The notes beneath the pieces were generated by a model. The model searched no databases, was not told the origin of the DNA, and saw only the letters and a list, made by a program, of their open reading frames with translations. A stretch of 64,000 nucleotides of DNA from Sulfurovum sp. (GTDB lineage: Bacteria; Campylobacterota; Campylobacteria; Campylobacterales; Sulfurovaceae): the NCBI GenBank assembly GCA_020721345.1, contig DYMX01000001.1, positions 9,960 through 73,959 on the forward strand, given 5' to 3'. Made by a program: the position numbers and the translations under genes. Below, piece by piece: positions 16,601-25,797 of this stretch. How positions within the stretch are numbered: the stretch's first letter is position 1; every line of letters starts with the position of its first letter.

Positions 16601-17183
16601 CAATCCTGTGCTGATCTGGAATGCCATGCCTCATAAGCTCAAGATAAAAATCATCGCCAAATATTTCTTTATACTCAAGCGCTATTTTTTTTGCCTCTTC
16701 ATATCCTTTTGCGCCAAAACTTTTATTTCTATCGTTTTCATTTAGATGCCAATTCACTTCGCCTTGCAAGCAGGCGCTTGAACAAACTAGTCCTTCGCCA
16801 TGCTCTCTAAGCAATTGTTTGTTTATCCTTGGATAGTAGTAGAAACCCTCAAGGTATGCTTTTGAGCTAAGATACATTAGATTTTTATATCCCGTTTCAT
16901 TTTTAGCATATAAGCATAGATGAAATCTCTGTCTTGTTGTTTTATCTCCCAATTCATCATTGTTGTGCAGATAACACTCCATACCGATAATAGGCTTTAT
17001 GCCCTCTTTTTTCATGGTCGTATAAAAATCAATTGCTCCGAACATATTGCCGTGATCTGTCATTGCAACAGCGTTCATTCCAAGCTTTTTGATCGTTTTT
17101 GCTAAGTTTTTTATCTTATTTGCGCCATCTAACAATGAGTATTCGGTATGAAGATGAAGGTGCGTGAAATTTATCTCAGACAT
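13656..17183 (-). CDS. dnaE: DNA polymerase III, alpha subunit
   Basis: 1175 aa. PHP domain (FTHLHLHTEYSLLDG), polymerase core (PDIDMDF) and an OB-fold tail. Confidence 0.95.
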   Translation of the reverse strand: MSEINFTHLHLHTEYSLLDGANKIKNLAKTIKKLGMNAVAMTDHGNMFGAIDFYTTMKKEGIKPIIGMECYLHNNDELGDKTTRQRFHLCLYAKNETGYKNLMYLSSKAYLEGFYYYPRINKQLLREHGEGLVCSSACLQGEVNWHLNENDRNKSFGAKGYEEAKKIALEYKEIFGDDFYLELMRHGIPDQHRIDNLILKIANETGIKVIATNDTHYNSQNDADAHEAFMCIAMNKLYDDPNRLRHSVHEFYVKSPEDIARLFADIPEAVANTGEIVEKCNLEIKLGNPTPPNFKFCREMAMMNNLDLPFVNEEYSLENDAILFEYEAKKGLEDRLKNINTSQYDEYRDRLGVEIEIIKNMKFPGYMLIVWDFVRAAKEMGIPVGPGRGSAAGSLVAFSLKITDIDPIPYGLLFERFLNPERISMPDIDMDFCQSRRQEIIDYVVDRYGRENVAQIITFGKLLAKGVIRDVARVLDVPYAKADAFAKLIPDELGIDLENSYKKEPKIAEFISSDEKYAQVWEFAKALEGLNRNAGTHAAGVVISNEPLWSKTPLFKPSGMDTVATQYSGKYIEDVDLIKFDFLGLKTLTVIDEANKLVEKRYGKRIDFATEDINKKEIYDYISTGHTLGLFQIESSGMQDLAKKLKPSGFEDVIAMLALFRPGPMESGMLDDFVERKHGRAEITYMFPELEPILKPTYGVIVYQEQVMQIVQTIGGFSLGGADLVRRAMGHKIKEEMDKLQVDFANGAEKKGFDRTKAEELFDLIVMFAGYGFNKSHSAAYAMITFYTSYLKCFYPTEFMAALLTLEKDNTDKIVKYSDELKKMNIDLVAPDINRSDLVFVADRINDSDVILFGLGAIKGVGESAINIIVEARSEGEFESLDDFLGRIDPSKVNKKVIEALIKSGALDSFGFTRKAMLSQIEEILEASAKAALAKKMSIGSLFEESENMTDVQLNIKDMDEFDQLSVLELEKETMGFYISGHPLDKYRNDIESIDFTLSSEIETLKEGSTTLLIGKIEEVNEKISKKGNKFGIIKLLDLHGNIEIRLFEDKLNELKEDFDLSKPVCFKVKIAKDGDSIKVNPMKILSLKDAKKEKNNIIKTEKEEIVYKTVTVCIMLKSSLDKINTLYNLAKENLGQHPLSICIKSKLADIIIESSYSVNESFLEKAKELGFFES

Positions 17184-17333: not shown

Positions 17334-17726
17334 CTAATCATAATTAAAAATGAAATCAACACCAAAAAGAGTTTCATTGATGCATGTAGAAAACATTGAG
17401 TGTGTAAAATCACCCCTCAGCTCTTCTACTTTCTCCATTAGTTTTGCAATATTCAGTAGTGAATAATCCTCTGATATATGATAAATAACAGCAACGCTTT
17501 TACCGCTTTTTAGCATATTCTCTATCTGTGTCAATATCGCTTCCTGGGCGACATCTGGAGATATTTTACTTTTGGCGCTATAACATACAAGAGCCGAATC
17601 TTTTCCAAAGCAGTCTACCAACTCTGATTTTACCAACTGTATCGTGTTTATTTGATATTTGCATAAATACTTGATAAATTCATCATAATTACTAAAAATT
17701 CTTTGTGAGACCTCTTTATCACTCAT
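17334..17726 (-). CDS. hypothetical protein (130 aa), island A
   Basis: Start set at the ATG 17726-17724, preceded by AAAAAGGAGCAAAA. It has its own promoter with the shared 19-bp operator. I recognise no motif. Confidence 0.55.
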   Translation of the reverse strand: MSDKEVSQRIFSNYDEFIKYLCKYQINTIQLVKSELVDCFGKDSALVCYSAKSKISPDVAQEAILTQIENMLKSGKSVAVIYHISEDYSLLNIAKLMEKVEELRGDFTHSMFSTCINETLFGVDFIFNYD

Positions 17727-17760
17727 TTTTGCTCCTTTTTTAGAAAGTATAATAAAATAA

Positions 17761-17779
17761 GTGGACAAAAAGTGTCTAG
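17761..17779. promoter_or_regulatory. 19-bp palindromic operator, copy 1 (minus-strand reading CTAGACACTTTTTGTCCAC)
   Basis: On the minus strand it is followed by exactly 9 nt and then TATACT (17751-17746), then AAGGAG and the ATG of the 130-aa gene. It is near-identical to copy 2 at 19392-19410. Confidence 0.55.
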
Positions 17780-18411
17780 TTATATTTATTTCTTATTTTA
17801 AAGACTACGGCACAATATGTGTCAGTATCATCATTTTCACTTACGATTCCGCATTTTTGTAAATGCATTTCTATAGTAAAATCACCACCAAGTTCTTTTC
17901 TTGCACTTTCGTAAATATTCTTTATTTGTTTAGTTAGTTCATCCTTTCCGCTGCCCTTACTGTAGTTTATTGATATATAAAAAGCAATAAGACCGAATTG
18001 AAAATCAGACAAGTCGGTTTTTCTGTTTAAAACCTCTTTGATTCTAGTTACATCAATTTTTATATTTTCATATGTACAAACACTATTTTTTACTTCAATT
18101 ACAGCTCTAGGTGTCCCACCTGCCCACCATAGGACTATATCAAATCTACCGTTTTCTCTTACGTCTGGATGCATTCTTCCTGCACCTGTGGCCTTTGCAA
18201 TATCCATCGTTTTTCTAACATTATCTTCAAGAGTAATGTATTTATTTTTATCAATTCTATTGAGCTCTTTTGCGATATTCACTGTCAATAAATATTCTGG
18301 CGCATTCCACAGCCACTCTCCATCACTCCACTCAATGTACTCTTCATGTGAATCTATGATTGCCTTAAGTGTACTATCTACGACTTCATTCATTGATAAT
18401 TGACTTGCCAT
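17776..18411 (-). CDS. PD-(D/E)xK nuclease-like protein (211 aa), island A
   Basis: GRFDIVLWW (Asp on a beta-strand) is followed about 17 aa later by AVIEVKN (E-x-K), with an upstream acidic helix (APEYLLTVNIAKEL). This is the classical restriction-endonuclease-fold signature. The call rests on motifs only. Confidence 0.55.
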   Translation of the reverse strand: MASQLSMNEVVDSTLKAIIDSHEEYIEWSDGEWLWNAPEYLLTVNIAKELNRIDKNKYITLEDNVRKTMDIAKATGAGRMHPDVRENGRFDIVLWWAGGTPRAVIEVKNSVCTYENIKIDVTRIKEVLNRKTDLSDFQFGLIAFYISINYSKGSGKDELTKQIKNIYESARKELGGDFTIEMHLQKCGIVSENDDTDTYCAVVFKIRNKYN

Positions 18412-18466
18412 ATTTTTCTACCTTTAAATTTTATCTTCCAAAATTATACACCTATCGACCAAAAAC

Positions 18467-18850
18467 TTAATCTTCATCAAGCCAGTTTTTAAACTCACTT
18501 ATCATCTCGTATCTTTTATAGTCCTTGCAATCACTACAAAAATACACCATTGTTTTTTTGACAACACCATCTGTAAGCCTCACATCAATACACTCTCTAT
18601 AATAATGCTCTGGATACCCCTCAAGCTCATCCAGAGATGACAAGACCACATCATCAACAGAATAAACCTCGCCTTTTATATGATATCCTTCTCCTTTGAT
18701 ATTTACAAGATGTGGATAAGCTGGAGATTGTAGTATCATTGGATATTTCTTCATGGTTATTGCATTGCCTACAAAAATGGAGCTAGCTAGATAGCCATCA
18801 TGATTTGCAAAACCTTTTTTTAGTGTACCGTAAACAAATATTTCATGCAC
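18467..18850 (-). CDS. gamma-glutamylcyclotransferase-like (AIG2/GGACT family) protein
   Basis: N-terminal FVYGTLKKG (the YGSL-type motif) and LDELEGYPEHYYR carrying the candidate catalytic Glu. The 127-aa length fits the family. Confidence 0.7.
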   Translation of the reverse strand: MHEIFVYGTLKKGFANHDGYLASSIFVGNAITMKKYPMILQSPAYPHLVNIKGEGYHIKGEVYSVDDVVLSSLDELEGYPEHYYRECIDVRLTDGVVKKTMVYFCSDCKDYKRYEMISEFKNWLDED

Positions 18851-19358
18851 AAATTACCCTTTTTGTATATGCAACCATCATGCGAACAGATTCATCATCA
18901 TCTTTAGCTAACTCTTCTAAGATGTAAACAGGTGTGGATTTGTTAAGCGCAACTTTCATACGAATATTTTTATCTTCTTCCCGTGAAAGTAGTTCTAAAA
19001 TTTCTAATGGACAATTAGGGTTTATGGCAACGGCTTTGCGGACACCACTGTCATTGTCTATAGCCAATTTCTCTAAAATATCTATCGGTGTTCTTGTATT
19101 GAATGCAACTGATCCTCGTATAATCTCATTGTTATTTTGCACCAATTCTCTTAATGTATTCAATGGTGTATTTATATTTTGAGCGACCATCTCTTGAATA
19201 CACCAATTATCATTTTTTGCCAATTTCTCCAGAATAATGCTTGGAGTATATTTATTTTTAGCGGCTTTATAAAGGAGATATAACTTCTTGTCTTTTTTCA
19301 ATTCGGCATAAGAGCGGAGTACCATTCTTATTGTTTCTTCACGGTCATTTTTATCCAT
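18843..19358 (-). CDS. leucine-rich-repeat-variant (LRV)/HEAT-like repeat protein
   Basis: About five tandem 23-25-aa repeats of the form TP..iLe.LA.D.d..VR..VA.N (for example TPIDILEKLAIDNDSGVRKAVAIN and TPVYILEELAKDDDESVRMMVAYT). Its stop overlaps the GGCT-like start by 8 nt. Confidence 0.65.
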   Translation of the reverse strand: MDKNDREETIRMVLRSYAELKKDKKLYLLYKAAKNKYTPSIILEKLAKNDNWCIQEMVAQNINTPLNTLRELVQNNNEIIRGSVAFNTRTPIDILEKLAIDNDSGVRKAVAINPNCPLEILELLSREEDKNIRMKVALNKSTPVYILEELAKDDDESVRMMVAYTKRVICA

Positions 19359-19391
19359 TTTGTACCTTTTTGTGTAATTATATATTTTTAA

Positions 19392-19410
19392 CTAGACACA
19401 AAGTGTCCAC
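19392..19410. promoter_or_regulatory. 19-bp palindromic operator, copy 2 (plus-strand reading CTAGACACAAAGTGTCCAC), shared by divergent promoters
   Basis: On the minus strand there are 9 nt and then TATAAT (19382-19377) for the LRV operon. On the plus strand there are 9 nt and then TGTCATAAT (hexamer 19420-19425) for the 19453 gene. Confidence 0.55.
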
Positions 19411-19452
19411 ATAATTTGTCATAATTTTGCAAAACCAACATATAGGCAAAAT

Positions 19453-20004
19453 ATGAATCAAAAAATTACAAAACTATCCGATGATTATTTACAAATCCTA
19501 AGACTTATAGAGGGGCTAAATGATAAAAATATATTTAAGTCTTTTGAAAATACCTTGCGAGTTCAAGACGGGATATTAAATCTCTTTGATAGTCTCTACT
19601 ACTTAGTAGGTGACAACAAAGATATAACATCAAATAAAAACATTATTTTAGATATGTTTGATTTTCAAAATTTTCTCAACACTTATAGGCTAACCACTAT
19701 TATACAAAGAGCTATTGAGCTTGGCGCAACCATGCAACACTTTACATTTGATGACTTCATGCTGCTTGTTGGCTTGGGCGACAAAGATATAAATATAGTT
19801 TTGGCATCAAGCAAATACATCAATGATGAAGTTGCGCGAAAAATTTTCAAACCAATTGTATATAAAGTTCTTGATAATCTATTTTTAAATGATGTATTGA
19901 GTATAGAATTTAAAAAAGAACTTTTAGCCTTTCTTTGCGAAGATGAAAATAAAAAATCAAGCACCTGCCAATTATTGATAAATAAATATAAACATTTAAA
20001 GTAA
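19453..20004 (+). CDS. hypothetical protein (183 aa), island A
   Basis: An ORF with good length, divergent from the LRV operon and sharing its operator. It appears all-helical and I recognise no motif. Confidence 0.5.
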   Translation: MNQKITKLSDDYLQILRLIEGLNDKNIFKSFENTLRVQDGILNLFDSLYYLVGDNKDITSNKNIILDMFDFQNFLNTYRLTTIIQRAIELGATMQHFTFDDFMLLVGLGDKDINIVLASSKYINDEVARKIFKPIVYKVLDNLFLNDVLSIEFKKELLAFLCEDENKKSSTCQLLINKYKHLK

Positions 20005-20015
20005 TGGTGATTTTT

Positions 20016-20915
20016 CTAAATAGAAATGCTTTCCATATATTCCCCTATCCTCTCCTTAACTTCATCAGCCAACCACTCTGGCTCCAAAACTCTCACGTAA
20101 GGGATACTTGAGAGAATGATAGGCATTATCTCCATCTCATTTGTTATCTCTACGGTTATCTCGACTGAGCCATCGCTGTCTTTGCCTGTGATACTTTGAG
20201 TTTTGAGCGGTTTTCTCTCAAAATAGACTATATAATCTTTATCTACCATAAGTTTTACATCAAACGGTTCGGTATCAAGCTGAAACCAAATAGAGTTTGC
20301 TTTTTTTAATCTCTCTTCTAGCTCTATGTTTGTATCAAAAACTTTGTCGATAATGGTTAGATTTTCTATGGATTTGATGTGAAACTTTTTAAATCTATCT
20401 TTACTTTTTACATCAAGAGCCAAAAGATACCAAAAACCATCAAAAAAAGCCAATTTGAGCGGCTTAAGTGTGAATTTTGTTTGTGGGTAAGTCATAGTAA
20501 TGATATGCTTAGCATTGATAGCTTTTTCCAACTCCATAAAATATGTTATATGGCTTTGACTCAAACTCTCACTTCTGTTATATGCAAATATATGGTGGTC
20601 TATATTTTGAGATAGTTCGCTTATGAGCATATGGGCTTTGCCATAAAACTCCGCGCCCACACCTTTTGCCATCTCGTCAAGAATAGCTAAAACTGTTTTT
20701 TCACTACTATCTACTTGTGTGCTTGTTTTATCTATACATAATTTTTTGCCATCTTTAATGATACCATTTTTGGATAGTATCTGCACAAAATCTCTCTGTA
20801 TTGTCTTTGTGCTTACTCCAAGATAAGCTGCCAACTCACTCATAGAAGATGGAGTTGCTTGAAGTATCTTATATACAGTATCTATTCTATTAAATCTATT
20901 ATTATCTATGGTCAT
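20016..20915 (-). CDS. WYL-domain transcriptional regulator (wHTH-WYL-WCX architecture, BrxR/CapW-like)
   Basis: N-terminal HTH (MSELAAYLGVSTKTIQRDFVQL-like). WYL core (ITMTYPQ...LKLAFFDGFWYLLALDVKSKDRFKKFHIKSI). C-terminal WCX-like end (DGSVEITVEI...IPYVRVLEPEWLADEVKERI). Confidence 0.8.
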   Translation of the reverse strand: MTIDNNRFNRIDTVYKILQATPSSMSELAAYLGVSTKTIQRDFVQILSKNGIIKDGKKLCIDKTSTQVDSSEKTVLAILDEMAKGVGAEFYGKAHMLISELSQNIDHHIFAYNRSESLSQSHITYFMELEKAINAKHIITMTYPQTKFTLKPLKLAFFDGFWYLLALDVKSKDRFKKFHIKSIENLTIIDKVFDTNIELEERLKKANSIWFQLDTEPFDVKLMVDKDYIVYFERKPLKTQSITGKDSDGSVEITVEITNEMEIMPIILSSIPYVRVLEPEWLADEVKERIGEYMESISI

Positions 20916-20962
20916 TTCAGACTATATCAGAAATGAGGTAAAGAAGAGAAGAGAAAGAAGTT

Positions 20963-20988
20963 AAACCATACCATAATCGGTATGGTTT
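20963..20988 (-). terminator. rho-independent terminator after the lipoprotein gene
   Basis: On the minus strand, AAACCATACC-GATTAT-GGTATGGTTT forms a perfect 10-bp stem followed by a T-rich tract (TTTAACTTCTTTCTCTTC). Confidence 0.6.
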
Positions 20989-21010
20989 ATTGTATTTTAA
21001 GGCAGACCTA

Positions 21011-21472
21011 TTATCTACACTGACTATAGCCGTTGTTCCAACCGTTTCTGTAGCTATAATTACGGTTATATTGATATGTATTTTTTCTTGTGCCTACATA
21101 TCTTCTAGACCAGCACCCGTCGGAATAACCATTGTTATATGAAGTATTGCCATAGCCACCGCCGCTACCGCCATAACTGCAACGATTGTAGCCGGAATTC
21201 CATCCTTCTCTGTAACTATAGTTGCGATTATATTGATAAGTATTTTTTCTCCATGTACCTCTTTTTGAGCTACATCCGTCTTGAACACCGTTTCTATAGT
21301 ATGAATCCCTGTTGGCTCCATAATTATAACCATCATAATAATACGCATCATTATTTGCGACACCACCGGTTAATGCATTTGCAACAACGGCTTGCTCATA
21401 TGCAGTACAACCGCCAAATATACCAGCGGCAAACAAAGACACTAAAACTAAGTAAAACTTCGAAATTTTCAT
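21011..21472 (-). CDS. Tyr/Asn/Gly-rich lipoprotein with an internal tandem duplication
   Basis: Start at the ATG 21472-21470 after AAGGAGAAAAA. Signal peptide with lipobox (AAGIFGG-C). There are two copies of DGC..(K/R)R....RKNTYQYNRNYSYR.GWN.GY..C. Confidence 0.6.
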   Translation of the reverse strand: MKISKFYLVLVSLFAAGIFGGCTAYEQAVVANALTGGVANNDAYYYDGYNYGANRDSYYRNGVQDGCSSKRGTWRKNTYQYNRNYSYREGWNSGYNRCSYGGSGGGYGNTSYNNGYSDGCWSRRYVGTRKNTYQYNRNYSYRNGWNNGYSQCR

Positions 21473-21541
21473 TTTTTCTCCTTTATATTTTAGCAATGAT
21501 ACATCATATTAATTTAAATGCATATTAAAAAATTAATCTAA

Positions 21542-24207: not shown

Positions 24208-25797
24208 TTAAATTTGAGGACCTGCATCTTTACAGCTAAATTCGCTGCTATTATCATCATATCTATGAAAATTTTCGATAAATAATTTTGCTAAACCATT
24301 AATTGCTTTATCGTATGCCTGCTTATCATCCCAGCTGTTTCTAGGATTTAAAATATTGGCATCAACACCATTTAATTCTTTTGGAATTGCAAGATTAAAA
24401 ACATCCAAGGTTTCAAACTCTGAATTTAAAATTTCACCGCTAAGTATAGTATTTATACAAGCTCTAGTATTTTTCAAACTCATTCTTTTTCCTACTCCAT
24501 AAGGACCGCCGCCCCATCCGGTATTGACAAGGTAAACATTAACATTGTGTTTATCTATTTTTTCTCCGAGAAGTTTTGCATAACGAGTAGGATGAAGTGG
24601 AAGAAATGCCTCTCCGAAACAAGCAGAAAAAGTTGCTTGAGGTTCCTTGATGCCCCTCTCTGTTCCGGCAACTTTTGCCGTATATCCGCTTAGAAAATAA
24701 TACATTGCCTGTTCTTTGGTAAGCTTGCTCACAGGAGGAAGGACACCAAAAGCGTCAGCAGTTAAAAATATTATATTTTTTGGATGACCTGCTTGTAGAT
24801 TTTCTTTATAGTTTTCAATATGCTCTATTGGATAAGAGACTCTTGTATTTTCTGTTTTTGAGTCGTCATCATAGTTTATATTGCCGTTATCATCATATAC
24901 GACATTTTCCAAAAGCGCATTTTTTCTAATTGCCGCATATATCTCGGGCTCATTATTTGGATCAAGATTGATAACTTTAGCATAGCATCCGCCCTCAAAG
25001 TTAAATACGCCTTCATCATCCCAGCCATGCTCATCATCGCCGATAAGAGCGCGCTTAGGATCTGTTGAAAGTGTTGTTTTCCCTGTTCCGGAAAGACCAA
25101 AAAACAGACAAACATCGCCGTCTTTGCCTACATTTGCAGAGCAATGCATAGATAGCTTTCCTTCTAGCGGCAACCAGTAGTTCATCATTGAAAAAATACC
25201 TTTTTTCATCTCGCCGCCGTACCATGTTCCACCGATTATGCAAACATTATCTTCTATATTAAAAACAACAAAGACATCAGAATTCAGCCCCTGTTCTTTG
25301 TATTTATCGTTGGAAACTTTACATGCATTATAAACAATAAAATCAGGCTCAAAATCTTCTAATTCTTCTTTTGTGGGTCTAATGAACATATTTGTAACAA
25401 AATGAGCCTGCCAAGAAACTTCTGATATGAATCTAATTTTTTTACGGCTCTCGATACTCGCTCCGGCGTAAACATCATTTACATATATAGATTTATTTGA
25501 TAATTCATTAAGCGACAATTCCAAAAGCTCATTATATATCTCTTTTGAAATTGGCCTATTTACATCACCCCAAGCTATTTCATCTGAAGATGGAAGTTGT
25601 TTTACAAAATATTTATCCTTAGGGCTTCTTCCTGTAAAAATTCCGGTATCACACATTGCCGTATCATTTGTGGAGAGTTTACATTCGCTTCTATTTACCT
25701 CATGTCTATGAAGTTCATCAAAGCTAAGATTATAGTAAATCTCTTTTATATTTTCTATGCCTAACTTTTCAAGTCCCTTTGACAACTTGGTGTCCAT
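24208..25797 (-). CDS. pckA: phosphoenolpyruvate carboxykinase (ATP)
   Basis: 529 aa, with the kinase-1a motif [11 protein letters not shown] and IGDDEHGW. Confidence 0.95.

Follow-up and report, generated by a model that had tools for sequence, protein, structure and literature searches.

A palindromic element at a fixed distance from predicted -10 boxes as the probable binding site of a DriD-like WYL-domain regulator in a variable gene island of Sulfurovum

Among the described transcription factors with a WYL domain, DriD of Caulobacter crescentus is a homodimeric activator in which a winged helix-turn-helix (wHTH) domain is followed by a three-helix bundle (3HB), a WYL and a WCX domain, and its consensus site is ATACGAC(X)7GTCGTAT (PMC10853764). 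The DriD sites overlap the -35 position and lie equally far from the -10 box in all regulated promoters, including a bidirectional one (PMC10853764, PMC13004042), and the gene for DriD is not controlled by its product (PMC13004042). The mycobacterial PafBC recognises tGTCgg(N10)tA(N3)T, or GTC-N12-TAnnnT, in which a '-26 element' replaces the -35 box (PMC8635444), a motif also given as tTGTCRgtg-8nt-TannnT (PMC5656591), while SiwR of Mycobacterium smegmatis is a homodimeric activator with a 19-bp imperfect palindrome between the -35 and -10 positions (PMC10693628). The repressors CapW and BrxR bind palindromes overlapping the -10 box (PMC9122588) and inverted repeats downstream of it (PMC9122601), respectively. 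Here, two copies of a 19-bp palindrome are described from a stretch of 64,000 nucleotides (the window) of contig DYMX01000001.1 of Sulfurovum sp. (GCA_020721345.1), where they lie in a small gene island next to a gene for a 299-aa WYL-domain protein. Copy 1 precedes a 130-aa gene, and copy 2 lies between a divergent 183-aa gene and an operon coding for an LRV/HEAT-repeat protein, a gamma-glutamyl cyclotransferase-like (GGCT-like) protein and a protein resembling the anti-phage protein Tin.

A sequence-only reading of the window had placed this palindrome exactly 9 nt from the -10 box of three promoters, and the coordinates of both 19-mers and all three 9-nt spacings match the sequence base for base (Table 1). 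The copies are likewise equal at 15 of 19 positions, as had been claimed, with the mismatches confined to the four central bases. In all three predicted promoters of the window, the site is located upstream of the -10 box, over the -35 position and at an equal distance; both sites end 9 nt before a predicted -10 box, and neither overlaps such a box or sits downstream of one. When read from the sequence, copy 2 is equidistant from both of its predicted -10 boxes. The earlier description of the shared core holds with regard to the palindrome, while GACAC-N3/4-TGTC gives way, on the family comparison described below, to the better statement RGACA-N5-TGTCY, equal to GAC-N7-GTC with an AT-rich centre. 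The same comparison shows that the invariant distance is better counted from the promoter-proximal TGTC, from which the -10 hexamer is 12 nt away. In the 64-kb window the original pattern, with up to three mismatches, is matched 3 times where 0.24 matches would be expected, and 3 matches were attained in 0 of 100 shuffles. The third match (37559; three mismatches) and a lone GACA-N6-TGTC at 25781 are situated inside long open reading frames (ORFs) and are chance matches, and no further intergenic copies occur in the other ~60 kb of the window.

One comparison was made with a collinear locus of Sulfurovum sp. clone C5 (L003), which shares 75-82% nucleotide identity with the window and 90% identity in DnaE. 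The island of L003 corresponds to that of the window minus the LRV gene, with both sites retained. The counterpart of copy 1 (L003 7208-7225) is conserved in position and sequence, the identical TATACT hexamer and spacing precede the 130-aa gene, and AATAAT can be read from the alignment at 12 nt from the TGTC on the side of the 183-aa gene. As the whole loci are 75-82% identical, this footprint adds little alone.

A broader comparison was made with 80 loci from GTDB genomes of other Campylobacterota, comprising relatives of the WYL protein with 27-57% identity and flanks of up to 7 kb on each side; 620 WYL homologues were found at E up to 1e-10. These loci were divided into a close group, with WYL proteins at least 38% identical to that of the window (339 kb), and a distant group (551 kb). 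The sequence AGACAC-N4-TGTCCAC recurs in Sulfurovum, Sulfuricurvum, Campylobacter, several Helicobacter species and unclassified Campylobacterales, in constant orientation to the downstream -10 box. Where the strict N5 motif matches at 12 or more of its 13 positions, TAnnnT lies 9 nt from the 17-mer in nine out of 11 cases and at 8 or 10 nt in none. The composite of at least 11 of 13 matching positions and a -10 box at 9-10 nt is found 16 times in the 339 kb of the close group, as compared with 0.1 times in shuffles, and is absent from the 551 kb of the distant group. The palindrome GACA-N5-TGTC occurs 29 times in the close and five times in the distant group and GACA-N6-TGTC 51 and 73 times, respectively, against 1-8 times each per group for the control spacings N3, N4, N7 and N8. 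These 158 N5 and N6 palindromes are present in most loci. In 124 of them (78%) a -10-like hexamer lies exactly 12 nt from a TGTC half-site, 102 having it to one side and 22 to both. Among the 124 N6 sites, the distance between TGTC and TAnnnT peaks at 12 nt (n = 93; runner-up 23), and the next start codon follows the sites at a median of 29 nt. Single sites shared by divergent promoters, as observed for copy 2, are also found in L012, L020 and L021.

The distribution of these sites follows the WYL gene. Over the first 250 bp from the ends of the WYL gene their density amounts to 1.0/kb; beyond 1 kb it is 10-30 times lower, at 0.03-0.1/kb, and inside the WYL genes it is 0. A total of 117 distinct proteins in 72 clusters are encoded downstream of the sites, which argues against a spacing that is inherited with a particular gene, and since more than 100 promoters in front of unrelated genes preserve the spacing although their spacer sequences differ, it is maintained by selection rather than by common descent of a promoter. 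Homologues of the 183-aa and 130-aa proteins were found in L003 only, among the 15 motif-bearing loci searched. As the WYL gene is the sole gene common to the loci, the motif tracks the WYL protein, and its specificity for WYL loci is judged from the distance profile, the control spacings and the other ~60 kb of the window. Co-variation of the recognition helix with the motif was discarded as a test, given that VS[TS]KTIQRD was itself a search pattern and is invariant by construction; an invariant recognition helix accompanies the invariant GACA half-site in loci that were partly selected by that helix. The recurrence across the family and the fixed -10 distance lend support to the earlier suggestion of a single dimeric regulator at the -35 position of the three promoters, and the clustering of sites at the WYL gene, together with their occurrence without homologues of the 183-aa and 130-aa proteins, supports the adjacent WYL protein as its candidate. 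At the sequence level, the two 19-mers can be taken with high confidence as binding sites of the neighbouring 299-aa protein.

This protein is a class A WYL transcription factor with the architecture wHTH-WYL-WCX. It matches the WYL domain PF13280 at 33.8 bits (cut-off 21.8; PADLOC WYL, E = 2e-25) and, in its C-terminal part, the WCX dimerisation domain PF25583 at 46.7 bits (cut-off 23.9), with HTH_DeoR at 21.8 bits (cut-off 21) and HTH_11 at 23.5 bits, under the cut-off of 25. The AlphaFold2 (AF2) model, with a predicted local distance difference test score (pLDDT) of 78, contains the wHTH, three helices, the WYL and the WCX domain in this order. Residues 7-61 form three helices and a beta hairpin (pLDDT 80-90), and the helices of the following region span residues 70-86, 89-102 and 120-134. 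Foldseek ranks DriD first (6e-13, with a full-length alignment), followed by PafBC (2e-11), BrxR (5e-9) and CapW (2e-8). A profile search of PDB sequences matched PafBC and DriD, weakly, and no other proteins, and a direct phmmer search of the WYL protein against PDB returned zero matches.

The locus resembles that of DriD in its pseudo-palindrome with a GAC-N7-GTC core and AT-rich centre, in a bidirectional promoter sharing one site, in the lack of autoregulation (here in the window and L003) and in providing the best structural match. They differ in protein sequence (17-18% identity), in the flanks of the site (ATACGAC in DriD, wAGACA here), and in phylum and RNA polymerase. The targets of DriD are DNA-repair and cell-division genes, whereas a variable defence-like island is concerned here; furthermore, the Campylobacterota family commonly shows a second spacing class, N6, and activation and a single-stranded DNA (ssDNA) ligand are assigned here by analogy. 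The exact distance between the DriD site and the -10 box, which can be read as GTC/GGC-N12-cAAnnn in three published oligonucleotides, was not relied on. With PafBC the locus shares GTC, 12 nt and TAnnnT without a -35 element (RecA-NDp, 'sigma adaptation'), as well as the WYL and WCX domains. PafBC is, however, a PafB/PafC heterodimer with a non-palindromic motif, in contrast to the single gene and two half-sites observed here; only one of its HTH domains touches DNA, its binding to DNA depends on RNA polymerase, and its regulon comprises more than 150 genes, as opposed to a local one. The regulator of the window is not a member of PafBC and has only the promoter grammar in common with it.

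The similarity to SiwR lies in a 19-bp imperfect palindrome directly upstream of the -10 box and in the control of a small adjacent operon. SiwR is, however, actinobacterial, has a DinB-like cargo and responds to oxidative and genotoxic induction, and a family-wide spacing rule has not been reported for it. The regulators of BREX and CBASS systems, BrxR and CapW, likewise have the wHTH-WYL-WCX architecture, a palindrome of ~20 bp bound as a dimer and an adjacent variable defence cargo, and CapW is a sensor of ssDNA that is able to regulate in both directions (PMC9122601, PMC9122588, PMC11662680). Unlike the sites described here, that of CapW overlaps the -10 box and that of BrxR is downstream of the box, in most cases within the promoter of the regulator gene itself. 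Both proteins also lack a helical bundle, rank below DriD in Foldseek (5e-9 and 2e-8 versus 6e-13) and gave no sequence-profile match.

Taken together, a DriD-like homodimeric WYL activator controlling a small defence-like island is the reading favoured here, with moderate confidence and largely by analogy. The WYL protein would bind as a homodimer, with one winged-helix domain per GACA/TGTC half-site and the half-sites set approximately one helical turn apart by the GAC-N7-GTC core. The site would form part of the promoter, from roughly -40 to -22, in place of a -35 box, with copy 2 serving the back-to-back promoters of the LRV-GGCT-Tin-like operon and the 183-aa gene, and copy 1 serving the 130-aa gene. 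On the model of DriD, SiwR and PafBC, the regulator would be produced constitutively, from its own extended -10 promoter. A ligand of the WYL domain, inferred from these analogies to be most likely ssDNA arising from DNA damage or phage replication, would switch the regulator on, and the active form would recruit or adapt RNA polymerase at the promoters without a -35 box, thereby turning the island on. Extended -10 boxes of the TGn type were read for only ~3 of 18 promoters, and their small number suggests that the promoters may be weak when unaided. The term operator used in the sequence-only reading is borne out insofar as the site is real; the repression it implies is not favoured, as the geometry is that of the WYL activators PafBC, DriD and SiwR. 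On these comparisons, the regulator probably activates rather than represses.

Several points weigh against this interpretation. All -10 boxes are predictions in AT-rich DNA, and promoters of the Campylobacterota are generally without a -35 box. In the model, confidence is low (pLDDT <50) for residues 85-114 of the three-helix region, the defining part of DriD-like activators, and with E = 0.005-0.02 at 17-18% identity the protein is only marginally similar to DriD and PafBC in sequence. All 80 loci were retrieved via the WYL protein, partly via its recognition-helix peptide, and the converse direction, from motif to WYL protein, was tested by the distance profile and the remainder of the 64-kb window alone. 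Both the identity of the binder and activation are inferred from sequence for the whole family. A repressor bound at -40 to -22 would work too, and the defence-associated WYL regulators characterised so far, BrxR and CapW, are repressors (PMC9122601, PMC9122588).

Repression by the same WYL protein at the same sites, in the manner of BrxR and CapW, is the rival to be taken most seriously, although it is the less likely reading. The bound protein would occlude RNA polymerase at -40 to -22 until released by a ligand; a site in the -35 region is a classical repressor position, Campylobacterota promoters need no -35 box, and the cargo looks defence-like, judging by the Tin-like PADLOC match and by Cas6 and SLOG proteins elsewhere. 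In addition, the characterised defence-adjacent WYL regulators repress (PMC9122601, PMC9122588, PMC11662680). Simple occlusion would, however, require no exact spacing, whereas contact with the polymerase would, and the -10 distance is exact in more than 100 promoters that serve unrelated genes. Binding by the known WYL repressors takes place at the -10 box or downstream, not upstream, the arrangement here is the one found for PafBC, DriD and SiwR, the modelled fold, including its helical bundle, is nearest to DriD, and the scarcity of TGn extended -10 boxes suggests promoters that are weak when unaided. Binding by another protein, either the 183-aa or 130-aa protein or a global regulator of the host, is improbable. 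The 183-aa gene diverges from copy 2, the classical position of an autoregulator, and both small proteins are without a family match. Set against this, their homologues are restricted to L003 among the 15 loci searched, while the motif is found in most of the 80 WYL loci; the sites pile up at the ends of WYL genes, neither an HTH nor any other DNA-binding domain could be found in the two small proteins, and the ~60 kb elsewhere in the window hold no other intergenic copies.

It had further been proposed that the two copies might serve a site-specific recombinase inverting the 1.6-kb three-gene segment between them, and this role, which is not supported, is considered very improbable. The copies are inverted in the window and bracket the operon, with an inverted alignment of 53 nt at 72% identity, but as the site itself is palindromic they align equally well as direct repeats, over 50 nt at 70%. 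The asymmetric halves of the two sites are co-oriented in L003 and a recombinase domain was not found among the island genes, which together make inversion unlikely, and other loci contain single sites or three to six of them in all orientations. Chance similarity in AT-rich intergenic DNA would be conceivable for short sites in AT-rich surroundings with two copies in the window; it is effectively refuted by the shuffles described above and by the recurrence in the family with exact spacing. Other known elements were also considered and rejected. The sigma-70 -35 box suggested by a promoter scan (TAGACA/TATTAT, 18 nt) would place the distal GACA 21 nt from the conserved -10 box, or 22 nt in the N6 sites, and the proximal TGTC is conserved. 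A sigma-54 promoter would read GG-N10-GC, whereas GTGGACA-N5-TGTC reads GG-N10-TC and would face away from most downstream genes. An RNA element was not indicated by an Rfam search, and the arms of the palindrome, at 4-5 bp, are too weak for a terminator.

The sequence-only reading had also remarked that no copy lies upstream of the WYL gene itself, which is true of both the window and L003. The DriD activator does without autoregulation, and a site-free WYL promoter is therefore no obstacle to the WYL protein as the binder. The candidate extended -10 element of the WYL gene, TGaTATAGT, ends 5 nt before the ATG at 20915 in the window, which suggests that the WYL mRNA there may be leaderless or nearly so; in L003 the element is located 34 nt before the ATG. 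A hairpin in the interval between the WYL gene and the lipoprotein-like gene (Table 1) is likely the terminator of the latter and stands outside the regulon.

Table 1. Sites, predicted promoter elements and genes of the island, in positions of the window.
Feature	Position	Strand	Remarks
Palindromic site, copy 1	17761-17779	site for minus-strand promoter	plus strand GTGGACAAAAAGTGTCTAG, minus strand CTAGACACTTTTTGTCCAC; core GACA-N5-TGTC; followed on the minus strand by 9 nt TTATTTTAT, TATACT 17751-17746, AAGGAG 17737-17732 and ATG 17726
Palindromic site, copy 2	19392-19410	strand-neutral, two divergent promoters	plus strand CTAGACACAAAGTGTCCAC; perfect core GACAC-AAA-GTGTC; minus side: 9 nt TTAAAAATA, TATAAT 19382-19377, ATG 19358; plus side: 9 nt ending TGT (TG 19417-19418), CATAAT 19420-19425, ATG 19453
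Predicted -10 TATACT of the 130-aa gene	17746-17751	-	9 nt from the 19-mer, equal to 12 nt from TGTC
Predicted -10 TATAAT of the LRV-GGCT-(Tin) operon	19377-19382	-	9 nt from the 19-mer; conserved in L003
Predicted extended -10 TGtCATAAT of the 183-aa gene	19417-19425	+	hexamer 9 nt from the 19-mer
Candidate extended -10 TGaTATAGT of the WYL gene	20921-20929	-	predicted; palindrome-free; element conserved in L003
Hairpin, 12-bp stem, between lipoprotein and WYL genes	20962-20989		conserved in L003
130-aa gene	17334-17726	-	ribosome-binding site AAGGAG 17737-17732; L003 homologue 69% identical
211-aa Tin-like gene	17776-18411	-	PADLOC PDLC02359 'Tin' anti-phage protein, E = 1.2e-10
127-aa gamma-glutamyl cyclotransferase-like (GGACT/AIG2-like) gene	18467-18850	-	PF06094, E = 2.9e-25; PHROG 2520
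171-aa LRV/HEAT-repeat gene	18843-19358	-	PF01816, E = 1.6e-12; first gene behind copy 2
183-aa gene	19453-20004	+	divergent from the LRV operon; 61% identical homologue in L003
299-aa wHTH/predicted helical bundle/WYL/WCX transcription factor gene	20016-20915	-	proposed binder of both sites

The island contains a single WYL gene and is flanked by dnaE and icd on one side and by the lipoprotein-like gene, cytochromes c and a two-component system on the other. The 130-aa and 183-aa proteins have no family match in library scans that included Pfam, PADLOC and PHROG, and the 211-aa Tin-like protein is without a Pfam match. No DNA-binding domain, HTH included, was detected in the 130-aa or 183-aa protein, and family scans revealed no recombinase domain in any of the six island proteins. 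A complete known defence system was not found in the island, the PADLOC match to 'Tin' (1.2e-10) standing alone, and there is no Rfam match at E up to 0.1 between positions 17000 and 21200. The island proteins are 42-69% identical to those of L003, as compared with ~90% for the flanking DnaE and response regulator, and by this sequence measure the island evolves at a much higher rate than the flanks. A TATAAT hexamer (18443-18448, minus strand) between the GGCT-like and Tin-like genes, ~31 nt before the Tin-like ATG, is conserved along with its 5' leader in L003, and may represent an internal promoter without a WYL site, such that the Tin-like gene would not depend solely on copy 2. The earlier proposal that one regulator controls five genes is supported for the single regulator, and the count of five is perhaps overstated, as a separate conserved TATAAT precedes the Tin-like gene.

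Beyond the window, the sites of the WYL loci precede, among others, genes for an AAA ATPase, a SLOG/YspA protein, one FtsZ-like and one L/F-transferase-like protein and Cas6, as well as the WYL gene itself in nine cases. Such cargo, including Cas6, SLOG/YspA and proteins with DYQRGYSW-type N-termini, is located at L022 7920-9844, L023 4005-6583, L060 7833 and L021 8695. The ORFs with the DYQRGYSW-type N-terminal motif are presumably DUF262/GmrSD-like. The cargo would fit defence or conflict islands; most of its proteins, however, are without a family match.

The kind of element described here, a WYL-factor site built into a promoter, is known. A search of a literature library found no paper on WYL regulators in Campylobacterota, where the regulation of defence and stress islands is essentially unstudied, and the Campylobacterota family, its pair of spacing classes, the local regulons with their variable, defence-like cargo and a grammar identical to that of PafBC appear to be undescribed. 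The rule RGACA-N5/6-TGTCY, in which TAnnnT stands 12 nt from TGTC, predicts promoters and targets of this regulator family in dozens of genera, and the geometry is that of the structures solved for PafBC (2021) and DriD (2026), so that the locus can serve to probe whether the activation mechanism is general across phyla and whether some defence-associated WYL regulators are activators. More tentatively, and at somewhat less than even chances, a large family of WYL proteins in Sulfurovum, Sulfuricurvum, Arcobacter, Helicobacter, Campylobacter and Sulfurospirillum could be activators that substitute for the -35 box in front of variable defence or conflict cassettes, using the grammar of PafBC and probably that of DriD. 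If true, GTC-N12-TAnnnT would be an ancient rule spanning phyla, in the Actinobacteria and probably the Alphaproteobacteria as well, the regulons of thousands of WYL regulators could be predicted by sequence alone, and defence islands would be subject to positive, damage-induced control beyond repression of the BrxR and CapW type.

Further features were observed at individual loci. The TAG stop codon of the Tin-like gene is embedded in copy 1 (cTAGACA; 17776-17779), and stop codons within sites also occur at L003 7208-7210 and L006 7898-7900 and at the WYL stops of L029 and L031, giving an overlap of 3-4 nt between a coding region and the site of the next promoter in several genera. In Sulfuricurvum, a sister motif, CGGACA-N5-TGTCCG, is located 9 nt from TATAAT or TATCAT (L048 10853, L064 12406 and L065 12372) and adjoins a second, more distant WYL-like paralogue of 321-333 aa with the recognition helix TSDRTIRRD; motif and paralogue may constitute a parallel regulator/site pair with altered flanking bases. 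An exact duplicate in L006 (6983-7912 and 13053-13982, ~6 kb apart) holds the WYL gene, its downstream site and a 138-aa gene, and may reflect either a tandem duplication or an assembly artefact of the metagenome-assembled genome (MAG). Finally, the lipoprotein-like gene beside the island (161-aa ORF, 21011-21496, minus strand) contains direct repeats at 21012-21299 with a period of 162 nt and 78% identity, which encode a recurring Tyr/Asn/Gly-rich motif.

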